From IMG/VR virus record IMGVR_UViG_2617270939_000001: a stretch of DNA of 12,103 nucleotides, one strand, 5' to 3'. Positions 6,561 through 11,836 of the stretch are shown piece by piece. This DNA is from a virus. Taxonomy: Duplodnaviria; Heunggongvirae; Uroviricota; Caudoviricetes. The number at the start of each line of letters is the position of its first letter. Position 1 is the first letter of the stretch. The position numbers and the translations under genes were made by a program. The notes under the pieces were generated by a model. That model searched no databases. It was given only the letters and a program-made list of their open reading frames with translations, and was not told the DNA's origin.

Positions 6561-6753
6561 TTTTAAATCCAACGACAGACGGCTGGCATTTAAGTATTGT
6601 GAAATATTATCAAATGTAATCATCATTGATTTACAAAAGATACATTTTGCCCCGAAAGGATTCATGTCAGAAACATCAAAAGATGATGTTCTATACTGGG
6701 AACCATGACAACACGGGCATCTAAAGTGAATATGGTTTGTAATATTGTCTACC

Positions 6754-6966
6754 TCAAAGCGCCACTACATGAACAGCGGCAGGACCTTTAGGTCCGTTCT
6801 CAATACCAAATTCAACTTCCTGATTCTCAGTTAATGTTTTGAAATCGTTGCTCTGAATTGCTGAGAAATGGACAAACACATCTTTGCTGCCATCTTTCGG
6901 CGTGATGAAACCAAAACCTTTTTCAGGGTTAAACCATTTCACTAAACCAGTCATTTTGTTAGACAT
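6754..6966 (-). CDS. cspI: Cold-shock protein CspI (CspA family), 70 aa
   Basis: [70 protein letters not shown] carries RNP1 (KGFGFI) and RNP2 (VFVHF). Confidence 0.9.
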
Positions 6967-7098
6967 AATTATTACCTTTTGAAGAAATTAGCCCTTGGGC
7001 AGAATGGTCCGAAAAAAAATATCAGAGAGAAAAACCAACAAGGAAATCTCAAGAGGTACAAATAATAAAATTATAACAATGACTGCTTCAGATAAATT

Positions 7099-7146
7099 TG
7101 TAACAAACCAGAACACCATTAACGCATGATTAACCACCCATAGCAA
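7099..7146 (-). promoter_or_regulatory. Predicted cspI promoter (-35 TTGCTA 7146-7141, 17-bp spacer, -10 GTTAAT 7123-7118) and cold-box-like 5' UTR start (GGTTTGTTACA, 7109-7099)
   Basis: Same layout as the cspB promoter in this window, and similar to the cspA promoter (TTGCAT/CTTAAT) followed by a GGTTTGACGTACAGAC cold box, as I recall it. Predicted 5' UTR about 144 nt. Confidence 0.45.
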
Positions 7147-7328: not shown

Positions 7329-8662
<1,334 letters not shown>

Positions 8663-8666
8663 TGGA

Positions 8667-8882
8667 TTATTCTCCTCTCGCAGCCTTACGCCTGTCTTCT
8701 TTAATCTTGAAATAAAGATTTGTCAGATACGTCAGCAGGCCAAAAACCAGGCTACCCAGCACACCGATTGCAGCCCACTGTGACGGAGTTACTTTATCGA
8801 GTAACTGCAATGCCCAGAAACCAGCATTACCCGCCGATGTGCCATAGGCAACACCTGTTGTTAACTTATCCATTGATTTCAT
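8667..8882 (-). CDS. essQ: Class II holin / pinholin, phage 21 S-like, 71 aa, with dual-start motif MKSM
   Basis: [71 protein letters not shown] has two TM segments and is very similar to S21 as I recall it. GGTGAGGAT SD before ATG 8882. The track ORF's 25-codon upstream extension is not supported. Confidence 0.85.
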
Positions 8883-9101
8883 ATCCTCACCCCGATGTAC
8901 ACGGATGGTGCAATATGTTTGAAAAGATCGGAGTCTACGGGGTAGTTTTGACAGCACACGTTGTTCTCAACGGCGCTAAAAAAACATACACATTAAAAAT
9001 GTGGGTAATTATTTTGAAAGAAAGTCATATATAAAATAATAATACGAGAAATGTTTTCATATTTAGTGTACTGTATACGGCCATTTATACAGGAAAAGCC
9101 T

Positions 9102-9272
9102 ATGTCAGAACGTAAAGACTCAAAATCACGCCGTAATTATCTCGTTAAATGTTCCTGCCCAAACTGCACCCAAGAGTCAGAACACAGTTTTTCAAGAGTA
9201 CAGAAAGGTGCCCTTTTGATCTGCCCTCATTGCAACAAAGTATTCCAGACAAATCTTAAAGCTGTAGCCTGA
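9102..9272 (+). CDS. Small zinc-ribbon protein, 56 aa, of the kind described as YnfQ/YmcF-type small proteins next to csp genes
   Basis: AGGAAAA SD before ATG 9102. Two CxxC pairs (CSCPNC … CPHC). Antisense to the late lysis operon. The upstream part of the track ORF (from 9051) lacks an SD. Confidence 0.6.
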   Translation: MSERKDSKSRRNYLVKCSCPNCTQESEHSFSRVQKGALLICPHCNKVFQTNLKAVA

Positions 9273-9327
9273 TTGATTTTATTAGTAACAAGTATTTTTT
9301 ATATTTTAATAATATATTTAAAGCAGA

Positions 9328-9354
9328 TAATAAAAAACCCGCCTGAGCGGGTTT
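9328..9354 (-). terminator. Rho-independent terminator acting on the minus strand (downstream of cspB)
   Basis: Perfect 8-bp stem AAACCCGC-ctga-GCGGGTTT (9335-9354), followed on the minus-strand transcript by a U run (plus-strand A run 9328-9337). Confidence 0.7.
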
Positions 9355-9635
9355 GAGATTGTGGTGCTTTTTGTGGGAGTCATCCACTTACGCACTTTGT
9401 TTTGCGATGCCAGCAGTTAGCTTCTGCTGTGAAACTATTCATGCAGCAAACCTGCACTTCACCACAATGGTTAGCATACTTTTCCTGATTAAGATTTTGC
9501 CAAATATGCTGGCCATTGTTTCATGTATTGGACCTCCTTACTTTTTATTAAAGAGATCCAATATTCACTACTCTGTCCGTATCTCTACTCAGGCATCAGC
9601 CTTCTTCGTTATCGTATACAGACGAGCGATGAATT

Positions 9636-9851
9636 TTAATCAGTAATGATGACATTTGCTGCTGCAGGACCTTTAGCACCACTCTCTATAGAGAAGGTAA
9701 CCTTTTGACCTTCAAATAAGGTTCGATAATTATCATTCTGAATCGCAGAAAAATGCACAAACACATCTTTACTACCATCAACAGGAGAAATAAAGCCGAA
9801 ACCTTTATCAGCGTTAAACCATTTTACTAAACCAGTCATTTTATTTGACAT
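9636..9851 (-). CDS. cspB: Cold-shock protein CspB (CspA family), 71 aa
   Basis: [67 protein letters not shown]… with RNP1 and RNP2 motifs. AAGGAA SD. Confidence 0.9.
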
Positions 9852-9993
9852 TCTACATTCCTTAACTTGAGCCTTTCGGCATAAATGGTTTGCATAACAG
9901 AAACGACTTCGTACTTAATTGGAGAGACTCAAAGAAGGAATAAGTGAATAACACCTGAAATGAGAACTGCTTTAGTAAACTACTTCGTATATC

Positions 9994-10047
9994 GTCTGTT
10001 CTTCAAACCGACGCAGTCATTAACTCATAGTTGAACATATGAAGCAA
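9994..10047 (-). promoter_or_regulatory. Predicted cspB promoter (-35 TTGCTT 10047-10042, 17-bp spacer, -10 GTTAAT 10024-10019) and cold box at the 5' UTR start (CGGTTTGAAGAACAGAC, about 10010-9994)
   Basis: Minus strand reads TTGCTT-n17-GTTAAT-gactgcgt-CGGTTTGAAGAACAGACGA…AAAGCAG, closely paralleling the cspA promoter and cold box as I recall them. Predicted 5' UTR about 159 nt (10010 to 9852). Confidence 0.55.
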
Positions 10048-10149
10048 TGTTTATTTTAGACATCCAGCCACCTTCAACCCTATCAAAAAAGTAGTTTTCT
10101 CCAGGAACGTGTGTATGGTGCACCAGGTTATCAGTATTAAGGAGTTTTT

Positions 10150-10358
10150 CTGTCCCCTAAAATGACAGGAATTGTCAAAAACTTTGACTACAAAAGCAGC
10201 AAAGGTCTTATATTCCCATCCGATGGCGTATCGATGCCCAGCTTCACGTTTCAGCTCTCAATCTTCGAGATGCAGAAGAAATTACCACAGGATTACGCGT
10301 GGAATTTTGCCGGATAAATGGTTCGCATGGACCTTCAACTGCCAATGTTTATCCCGGG
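10150..10358 (+). pseudogene. cspF: cspF-like cold-shock gene remnant: start codon position is CTG, one frameshift, and no stop at the expected end
   Basis: TAAGGAG SD (10138-10144) sits 5 nt before CTG 10150, where ATG is expected. Frame 1 from ATG 10162 gives [22 protein letters not shown], then homology resumes in another frame (…[12 protein letters not shown]…[21 protein letters not shown]) after a one-base loss near 10227. That frame runs on through the terminator. Confidence 0.6.
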
Positions 10359-10395
10359 ATGAGATTCAATATCTCTATTGCCCCATTTAAAGCAC

Positions 10396-10430
10396 AAAAA
10401 CCCGCTTATAAGCGGGTTTTCTACTTTTTT
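10396..10430. terminator. Strong bidirectional rho-independent terminator; candidate tR' of the Q-dependent late transcript
   Basis: Perfect 9-bp stem AAACCCGCT-tata-AGCGGGTTT (10398-10419) with an A run before and a T run after, so U tracts follow the hairpin on both strands. About 110 nt downstream of the Q stop on the minus strand. Confidence 0.75.
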
Positions 10431-10526
10431 CTAAACGTCGGATACACAAAGCCCATCGTTGAGAAAATCTTATCCATGTTTTTTGAAAAATGCAAACATC
10501 ATGTCGCCATCTTCAGCAAAAATCAT

Positions 10527-11279
10527 TTATCTCGTCACCTTCCTCAATTGCGCTTCCGCGTATGCTTCTTCCTGCCAGCACTTTGTTACCAGTTTACCAA
10601 TGACGTCCGCATACCCCTTATACCACTGATAATCGGTCAGGTCTGGTACCAGCTTCTGGACATGACGTCGTGCCAGCGTGGTCGGTAAACGACTAAACCG
10701 GTTTCCATTACAACGCCCACAAATCTTATATACCGGTACGCCATGAAACCGGGTTCTTTTTTCATCCAGAACAATCCCTTTACCCTTACACCCCCTGCAC
10801 GCTGTGCTGACTTCGCCCTTACCATGGCAATGCTGACATAGTTCCTTCACCCATTCTTCCTTGATTACAGATTCCCCGCGTCTGTAGTGTTTCACCACTT
10901 CGCGCAATACATTATAAAATCCCGTACCTGAACAATGCTCACAGCGAGCCTTACTTGCCGCAGACCTGGAGTAATCAGCAAAGGCAAAATTCACAAGGTA
11001 AGGAATAATCTGTAACCGGATTTCTTCACTCAATTTGTTCAATGTCGGGTTATCCAGTGCCATCGCGTAATTTAGCAGGCCTTCAATCGCAAACTGAGGG
11101 TCCTGAACACCAACTTTTGCCAGAAATAAGGCCAACCCAAGTGGTGCTTTCGACTGCACCATCCCCTGCGCTGCCATTACATCCGTAATTGTTAAACAAC
11201 CGGTGCCTGTCGCTGGAGCGTCATCGCTCAATTTTGGAGATTTTGGGGAGTAATATTTTGGTAAGGCTTCAAGGTTCAT
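10527..11279 (-). CDS. quuQ: Late-gene antiterminator Q, 250 aa from [10 protein letters not shown] (the track ORF's 65-codon N-terminal extension overlaps the upstream gene and is rejected)
   Basis: GGAGAA SD before ATG 11279. Four Cys pairs ([30 protein letters not shown]), a zinc-binding pattern. Sequence and length agree with K-12 QuuQ/QuuD-type Q proteins as I recall them. Confidence 0.8.
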
Positions 11280-11292
11280 GCTCGTTCTCCAC

Positions 11293-11836
11293 TTACGCCA
11301 GTACGCCAGTTGCCAGCGCGCGATCGATAAAACGAAATACCAGCTCCAGTTGGGAGCCATACTTCTCTTCAAATGCCACTGTATCCGTATGCAGCTCGTT
11401 GTGATGCTTTCTGCACAAAGGCAACACAAAGAGATCATGTGCTTTTGTTCCCATTCCGCCCTGCCCGTGACCAATCAGATGATGCGGATCGTCGGCTGGC
11501 ATACCGCAGCAAGCACACGGCTGTGTCTTAACCCAACGTGTGTATTTCTCCTTAACCCAGCGGCGACGTTTAGGCAGCTTCATGAAAGATTCCGGAGACT
11601 CTGGATCAACGGTGATGATTACCACCGTCTTTTCCTGTGGTGGTTTTTGTTGCTGGTGGGCGTAAGGCAACGGTGCAAGATTTTTTGTGCGTTGTTTCAA
11701 TATGCTGGTGGCGGTCTGCTCTCCCGGTACGATGTCGCTTTCGCGGTACACCGAGCAGATTTTTTCCGCTGGTAATCCCAGCGAACGACGCGATACAGCC
11801 TCAGGTAGTGCATCCACCTGAATCGCCACGGATAAT
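11293..11836 (-). pseudogene. ydfU: YdfU-like (DUF968) gene, C-terminal part only; N-terminus replaced by an IS3-family insertion
   Basis: C-terminal region carries an HNH-like Cys/His motif (PCACCGMPADDPHHLIGHGQGGMGTKAHDLFVLPLCRKHHNELH) and ends 13 nt before the Q start. Upstream, the same DNA in another frame encodes the end of the transposase, so the first about 40 codons of the track ORF are IS-derived. Exact junction not determined. Confidence 0.55.

Follow-up and report, generated by a model that had tools for sequence, protein, structure and literature searches.

We found that the intergenic DNA immediately downstream from the antiterminator gene Q in a Qin-type prophage of Escherichia coli has the anatomy of a phage late promoter region. 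That is, a weak promoter (PR'), a pause element like that of phage lambda and a hairpin terminator (tR') follow one another between Q and cspB. We estimate a probability of roughly 0.88 that the region serves a Qin-type lambdoid prophage, with a Q of the Q-lambda family, as its late regulatory cassette, and we are at least as confident in the identification of PR' and tR'. The element is of the well-known lambda type, its copy in E. coli K-12 is already present in public high-throughput data, and the status of cspB as a moron is published. Under this assignment, one of the strongest sigma70-dependent pauses recorded in K-12 is explained: it is the pause at the Qin late promoter.

The locus and its genes

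The window (the whole stretch of DNA that was analyzed, 12,103 nucleotides) is a cryptic lambdoid prophage of the Qin type from E. coli. It matches NZ_LR536431.1 with 100% identity from 8600 to 11400, and at least 80% of this stretch is found in ~1,570 of 5,426 complete E. coli genomes (~29%). Our reading supplies a corrected functional annotation for the intergenic stretch inside the Q-to-holin region of these genomes. The sequence anatomy, the family of Q and the order of the genes were observed directly in the window. On the minus strand, the order is a truncated DUF968 gene, Q, cspB, the holin gene S, a lysozyme gene and Rz-like genes. The lysis genes are on the same strand as the cassette and 3' of it, beginning with the holin (8882-8667). 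The genes that frame the cassette, other than cspB, are:

10527-11279, minus strand: Q antiterminator, ydfT/quuQ type, 250 aa (Pfam, phmmer, identity to relatives)
10529-10527, minus strand: TAA stop codon of Q (direct sequence reading)
10150-10352, plus strand: cspF pseudogene, antisense to late transcription (RefSeq: frameshifted, C-terminus missing; stop codons in the translation)
9102-9272, plus strand: ynfU, antisense to late transcription (RefSeq annotation)
8667-8882, minus strand: holin S, essQ/essD type, the first lysis gene downstream of PR' (Pfam PF04971, 4.4e-34; annotation)

The copy of cspF has a 1-nt frameshift and, relative to K-12, a 258-bp deletion that takes out ynfS and the 3' end of cspF. 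The deletion junction is at 10352/10351, between ATCCCGGGA and TAAACATTGG (minus strand). The plaque-forming phage Tritos has the identical 258-bp deletion, indicating that the deletion is older than the decay of the prophage in the window. Upstream from Q, the annotation shows the truncated DUF968 gene and then IS3/IS30 remnants. Because the early operon that normally supplies Q is gone and IS remnants lie upstream, the supply of Q in this cryptic locus is doubtful.

Two observations concern other parts of the window. There is a full-length match to Rfam IS009 (RF02111, 221 bits) at 1375-1573 on the minus strand, inside the tail-fibre-assembly gene tfaQ and adjoining pinQ. In addition, a single 279-aa open reading frame at 7823-8662 (minus strand) covers both the lysozyme gene rrrQ and a ydfR-like gene (DUF1327) that carries a frameshift in the annotation. 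The frameshift places the N-terminus of ydfR in one frame with the lysozyme.

Q belongs to the Q-lambda family

The product of Q matched Pfam PF03589 (2.9e-54), named as the Q-lambda family (Yin 2022), and by phmmer it matched the Q-lambda chain 7UBM_Q (5.8e-36). It had no match to the Q82 and Q21 families in the Pfam and phmmer searches. Two of its 250 residues differ from K-12 YdfT, and two from the Q of phage PhiR42_1; six of 250 differ from the Q of Tritos. A Q-lambda cassette is defined as the Q gene, PR', a Q-binding element, a sigma-dependent pause element, a terminator and the late genes (Yin 2022).

Compared to Q-lambda, there is an insertion of ~40 residues at residues ~120-160 of Q (DNA ~10800-10920, minus strand). 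It adds two CXXC motifs, for a total of four, and the region also scores as a DnaJ-type CXXCXGXG zinc finger (PF00684, 7.9e-09). This insertion with its two extra CXXC motifs suggests that the DNA-contacting 'arm' of Q is probably longer or binds two zinc ions. In K-12, a Rho-dependent region on the plus strand, antisense to ydfT, is reported at 1643015 (Adams 2021).

The promoter and its spacer

The preliminary description of this DNA, made from the sequence, proposed a sigma70 promoter downstream from Q. Direct reading of the minus strand confirmed both hexamers and the 17-bp spacer at the positions given for them:

10490-10495, minus strand: PR' -35 hexamer TTGCAT (direct reading; invariant in 9 of 9 Qin-type, mEp460-type and Stx-phage copies examined)
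10473-10489, minus strand: 17-bp spacer TTTTCAAAAAACATGGA, putative Q-binding element (clade-specific conservation)
10467-10472, minus strand: PR' -10 hexamer TAAGAT (direct reading; TAAAAT in K-12)

The hexamers, together with a downstream hairpin and its T run (10420-10392), span 32-137 nt past the Q stop on the minus strand. The hexamers had been called weak, and they are: the -35 matches the consensus at 3 of 6 positions and the -10 at 4 of 6. A promoter scan did not report the TTGCAT/TAAGAT site, and the region as a whole had five promoter-like sites versus 5.8 expected from shuffled sequences. With no excess over chance and the site absent from the scan, the hexamers alone are no evidence for a promoter. 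The composite of hexamers and pause element, TTG-N20-TANNNT-N6-AACGAT, occurs once in the window, with 0 mismatches (chance ~0.09 with one mismatch allowed).

The promoter in the window is identical to that of Tritos. Compared to K-12, one base in the spacer, one in the -10 and one in the discriminator are changed, along with a few positions in the transcript. The TAAGAT form of the -10 is found also in Tritos, mEp460, SfV, and Stx2c and Stx2k phages. We searched the published literature on Qin, ydfT and quuQ for a late promoter or antitermination and found no paper describing this promoter, nor any published test of Q-dependent read-through at this terminator.

In lambda, the Q-binding element is located within the spacer between the -35 and the -10. 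The element spans 13 bp of the late promoter, 5' of the pause element (Yin 2022). In every phage with the type of Q found in the window, the spacer is TTTTCAAAAAA(C/T)ATGGA. This class of spacer is unlike the class in lambda and P22 and unlike the class in EH1910, HK225 and Klebsiella phage. The spacer classes track the clades of Q, as co-evolving pairs of Q and Q-binding element would, and we infer that the Q-binding element of this cassette is in the spacer at 10473-10489.

Putative start site and sigma70-dependent pause

The sequence just past the -10 is closely similar to that of lambda PR'. The features predicted here are:

10452-10460, minus strand: putative start at A10460, with the pause element AACGAT (+1 to +6) and GGG (+7 to +9) (likeness to lambda; K-12 start site)
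10443-10444, minus strand: predicted sigma70-dependent pause, +17/+18 (K-12 RNET-seq homologue)

The putative start is 67 nt past the Q stop. The sequence AACGATGGG (10460-10452) begins six bases past the -10, which is exactly the spacing in lambda PR'. That is, the window reads TAAGAT-TTTCTC-AACGATGGG and lambda PR' reads TAAATT-TGACTC-AACGATGGG. In lambda, AACGAT is a -10-like sequence that is re-bound by sigma70, with GGG at +7 to +9 strengthening the binding, and the polymerase pauses at +16/+17. While Q is being loaded, sigma region 4 sits on the hexamer immediately 5' of AACGAT. In the window, this hexamer agrees with the lambda TTGACT at only 4 of 6 positions.

Data from K-12 place both a start and a pause at this element. 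RNET-seq with sigma70 affinity in a delta-greAB strain detected minus-strand pauses at 1640430 (score 5783, ranked 24th) and 1640429 (score 6881, ranked 12th) (Sun 2021). The nearest start determined by dRNA-seq (Thomason 2015, via Sun 2021) is 1640446, at distances of 16 and 17 from the two pauses. The coordinates in Sun 2021 are those of NC_000913.2, and an offset of +1976 converts them to version 3. As a check on the offset, we predicted a start for cspB at 1639739 (version 2), and it was present there. The K-12 start at 1640446 (version 2), or 1642422 (version 3), falls on the initial A of AACGAT, which in the window is position 10460. K-12 and the window align without indels from +1 to +25. 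Across the promoter, pause element and hairpin, the K-12 Qin sequence differs from the window by a few substitutions and two single-base indels.

The supplement of the K-12 Cappable-seq study has no entry at this start position, and we found no mention of a Qin late promoter in the text of Sun 2021 or Adams 2021. The start site, the sigma70-associated pause and the RNA 3' end described below are known from the K-12 homologue only. By homology, the window would have an active sigma70 promoter with a defined start, and a sigma-dependent pause element corresponding to the one at which a sigma70-associated pause was measured in K-12.

Conservation of the cassette and exchange of cargo

The cassette is found in plaque-forming phages. 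Tritos, from strain LF82, is collinear with the window from 11300 to 8600, without gaps and at 98.9% identity, and has the same cspF remnant. A plaque of Tritos was isolated on MG1655 (Misson 2023). Phages PhiR42_1 and 2H10 have the K-12-like version, with cspF intact.

The same Q/PR' module is followed by different cargo in different phages. The cargo is cspF/cspB in Qin, Tritos, PhiR42_1 and 2H10. In a second group, with a Q that is ~94-95% identical, it is a methylase gene and small hypothetical open reading frames in mEp460, SfV and Ayreon, tRNA genes with stx2 in Stx2c and Stx2k phages, and tRNA genes with stx2k in phiSTEC1575. In the Stx2c phages, a homologue of stxA is 2.7 kb past Q. 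The preliminary description had likened the position of cspB to that of the stx genes in Stx phages. This comparison turned out to be literally true: the same module precedes stx2c and stx2k. Q-dependence measured on the harmless Qin or Tritos version of the module should therefore carry over to expression of the toxin.

The layout also recurs after Q genes that are only 33-42% identical, in P22, Stx2a_EH1910, SF6, HK225, Klebsiella phi5.1 and Yersinia YeP3. The pause element is AACGAATGG in P22 and AAGGATGGG in Yersinia YeP3. In these distant relatives, a hairpin and T run are 35-65 nt downstream from the inferred start; lambda, with its terminated RNA of 194 nt, is the exception.

Comparison of the Qin-type modules with those of mEp460, SfV and the Stx2c and Stx2k phages revealed that similarity ends at window position 10446 (+15), shortly before the pause site. 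Despite the divergence past +15, a CCCGC/GCGGG hairpin is present at equal distance in both groups. It seems that the boundary for exchange of cargo is inside the short transcript.

The terminator tR' and the short RNA

The hairpin that ends the cassette is:

10392-10420, minus strand: tR' hairpin (10420-10397) and U tract, with a predicted RNA 3' end at ~10392 (terminator scan; fold; K-12 Term-seq)

A terminator had been placed about 110 nt past the Q stop; the measured distance is 107 nt. The hairpin is AAAACCCGCT-TATA-AGCGGGTTTT, followed by TGTGC. The terminator scan scored it on the plus strand only, as a hairpin of 10 pairs, 5 of them G-C. The minus-strand T's were counted into the stem. 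The hairpin is symmetrical, with a run of A's before it and a run of T's after it, and it is possibly bidirectional; plus-strand transcripts arising from cspF might then stop here as well. The stem is followed by a short U tract with interruptions (UUUUUGUGC).

The stem is kept across phages, with changes in the loop. In Stx2a_EH1910, the stem still pairs although bases have changed: a C-G pair is changed to U-G on one side, and a U-A pair is changed to C-G on both sides. The equivalent hairpin is annotated as a terminator in the GenBank records of SfV, Ayreon and HK225.

In K-12, Term-seq detected a minus-strand RNA 3' end at 1642356 in two or more growth conditions (Adams 2021). This position is the C of GCGGGTTTTGTGC, 8 nt past the stem. 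The K-12 start site and the mapped 3' end together indicate that an RNA of 67 nt is made from PR' without induction, with a sigma70 pause at +17/+18. The counterpart in the window would extend from 10460 to ~10392 and be ~69 nt. The predicted fold has a 5' hairpin, an A-rich linker and the terminator hairpin (z-scores: K-12 RNA, -5.6; window RNA, -2.3). K-12 Term-seq also has a minus-strand 3' end at 1642188, which is 168 nt past tR' and inside the 258 bp that are absent from the window. This 3' end indicates that some transcripts cross the tR' hairpin without induction.

By analogy with the small RNA StxS, cryptic prophages might keep the cassette mainly for the ~69-nt PR'-tR' RNA, acting in trans. 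StxS is a precedent for Hfq-dependent by-products of PR'-tR', perhaps a general one according to its authors. The RNA in K-12 gives a sizeable Term-seq 3'-end signal without induction, and its fold is structured, as described above. Several observations weigh against this idea. A search of 10370-10540 against Rfam at gathering thresholds found no family, the U tract is short and interrupted, and from +15 on, the body of the transcript is different in Qin-type and mEp460-type modules, which argues against a conserved seed. We consider this explanation improbable. (With permissive thresholds, there were Rfam matches to leader and small RNA families. We rejected these as chance matches; they were below threshold and had in common only a generic terminator hairpin.)

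The hairpin might instead be a mere bidirectional terminator for the convergent transcripts of Q and cspF/ynfS, with the hexamers having no regulatory role. The symmetry of the hairpin and its score on the plus strand fit this view, as does the arrangement of the genes: cspF, and in K-12 also ynfS, converge on the hairpin. In addition, a Term-seq 3' end by itself cannot separate transcripts from PR' from the ends of Q mRNA. However, in K-12 there is a start and a top-ranked sigma70 pause exactly at AACGATGGG, 67 nt 5' of the mapped 3' end. The unit of promoter, pause element and hairpin is also kept in mEp460, SfV and Stx phages, all of which lack cspF, and we found no plus-strand 3' end at the hairpin in the K-12 Term-seq table. 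We regard a mere bidirectional terminator as somewhat more improbable still. Least credible is that the hexamers are a chance match with no start site: they are weak and the promoter scan was not above shuffled sequence, but the K-12 dRNA-seq start and the pause at the homologous base already contradict this, the composite motif is improbable by chance, and the layout is conserved across the Q-lambda family.

We favor the reading as PR' and tR', which had first been proposed from the layout. It is now supported by the lambda-type pause element, by the family-wide layout, and by the start site, sigma70 pause and RNA 3' end in K-12.

cspB between the cassette and the holin

The DNA between tR' and the holin contains cspB in the sense orientation (9851-9636), as reported before. 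It also contains the antisense cspF pseudogene and antisense ynfU, which the preliminary description had missed. The distance from the hairpin to the holin start at 8882 is 1,515 nt, in agreement with the earlier figure of roughly 1.5 kb. Two features belong to cspB:

9620-10012, minus strand: cspB unit with start at 10012, thermoregulator 5' UTR and coding sequence 9851-9636 (Rfam, K-12 start site, annotation)
9335-9354, minus strand: hairpin terminator after cspB, common to the convergent ynfU (terminator scan; K-12 Term-seq)

The leader matches the cspA-type thermoregulator RF01766 (158.8 bits over 10012-9620). The K-12 start of cspB at 1639739 (version 2), 161 nt 5' of the ATG, is at the same place as the 5' end of the RF01766 match (window position 10012). 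K-12 also has a Rho-dependent 3' end within the cspB leader, and a plus-strand Term-seq 3' end (1641060) at the hairpin homologous to 9335-9354. A second cspA-type thermoregulator (RF01766, 112.8 bits; 6727-7112, minus strand) belongs to cspI, further down the late region.

In a Tritos lysogen, expression of cspB was 59-fold over the prophage background, and cspB is listed as a moron alongside cspI (Misson 2023). Consistent with this, cspB has its own promoter and terminator and is expressed in the lysogen independently of the lytic programme, and it is part of a variable cargo between conserved flanks in related phages. That is, cspB is a self-contained moron within the Q-controlled unit. Since it has its own promoter, leader and terminator yet is inside this unit, late transcription would supplement, and not supplant, the expression that cspB has by itself.

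Polymerase modified by Q is expected to read through terminator signals such as these, and so co-expression of cspB on induction, as the preliminary description suggested, is a reasonable expectation. Co-transcription of cspB from PR' would follow from the gene order. Because the window prophage is cryptic, with Q cut off upstream by IS remnants, 'during induction' fits intact relatives such as Tritos and not this locus. (Induction of the Qin csp genes by AZT has no bearing here. We rejected it as a sign of Q-driven transcription because non-prophage csp genes respond alike.)

We looked for a second late cassette directly upstream of the holin, as in the K-12 prophage DLP12, and found no minus-strand hairpin with a T run between 9335 and 8882. 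No other promoter-terminator unit was found ahead of the holin. In plaque-forming phages that share this layout, the only way for PR' late transcripts to get to S is through cspB. The DLP12 region compared with the window is not homologous to it. About 170 nt before essD in DLP12 is the second-ranked sigma70 pause of K-12 (Sun 2021); its start is at 576452 (version 2), and the pauses are at +12 to +15. At this start (position 2430; region 2395-2480 of the DLP12 stretch), there is a TATGCT -10 and then a AAACCCGCC...GCGGGTTTTT hairpin just before the holin, and nmpC is upstream of this promoter-hairpin unit. It looks like DLP12 has its own late cassette with the porin moron outside the Q-controlled unit, unlike cspB in the window.

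Proposed function of the cassette

Based on these results, we propose the following model. In the absence of Q, sigma70 RNA polymerase would start at A10460. Sigma region 2 would re-bind AACGAT (+1 to +6), aided by GGG (+7 to +9), and the polymerase would pause at about +17/+18. It would then terminate at the hairpin (10420-10397) and release an RNA of ~69 nt. When Q is present, it would bind DNA in the spacer between the -35 and the -10 and load onto the paused complex, and the polymerase would become resistant to terminators. Transcription would then go on past tR' and the antisense remnant of cspF, through cspB (including the Rho-dependent attenuator and the terminator of that gene) and antisense ynfU, and reach the S-R-Rz lysis genes. 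Binding of Q and Q-dependent read-through of tR' are predictions from the sequence and from the family to which Q belongs.

It is conceivable, but unlikely, that the cassette has a further role. The ~69-nt RNA might act in trans like StxS, or cspB (and cspI) in the late unit might supply RNA chaperone in a burst, to the benefit of late transcription or translation, for example in the cold, or both.

Comparison with known systems

The logic of promoter, sigma-dependent pause and terminator is shared with phages 82 and 21, in which the Q families are unrelated to the Q in the window. In phage 82, the pause is at +25 and the -10-like element is further downstream. Q21 binds a direct repeat as a dimer (Yin 2022).

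The cassette is much closer to that of P22, where gene 23 encodes a Q-lambda-family antiterminator. The geometry is the same, and a hairpin ~35-60 nt after the start gives a short RNA. P22 differs in its pause element (AACGAATGG), in having a lambda-class spacer and in having no cargo genes before the holin.

Compared to lambda, the family of Q (PF03589) is the same, the cassette comes right after Q, and the -10/N6/AACGATGGG arrangement at +1 to +9 is kept. A pause at about +16 to +18 is followed by an intrinsic terminator, with the late lysis genes beyond. The differences are in the spacer, the expected place of the Q-binding element, where the sequences are unlike, in the -35, which is weaker in the window, and in the terminated RNA, which is 194 nt in lambda (the 6S RNA) and is predicted to be ~69 nt in the window. 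In addition, the zinc arm of the Q in the window is larger by ~40 residues and two CXXC motifs, and there is ~1.5 kb of cargo between tR' and S. In lambda, the distance from tR' to S is ~500 nt.

In the Stx phages, as in the window, there is sense cargo between tR' and S, and the Q/PR' module of the Stx2c and Stx2k phages is the one described here. Stx phages make the short terminated PR'-tR' RNA constitutively. StxS, from Stx1 and Stx2a phages, is an Hfq-dependent regulator derived from this by-product: the PR' transcript of 258 nt is processed to 74 nt, and its authors suggest possible generality. The cargo differs in its own regulation. cspB has its own leader and its own strong, regulated promoter, which stx2 is not known to have.

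The closest match is the Qin prophage of K-12 (ydfT-cspF-cspB-essQ), which has the same element. The flanks are 97.7-98.1% identical, with the same promoter, pause element and hairpin. In contrast to K-12, the window has lost ynfS and the 3' end of cspF (258 bp in all), its cspF is frameshifted, its -10 is TAAGAT in place of TAAAAT, and it is more degraded upstream of Q.
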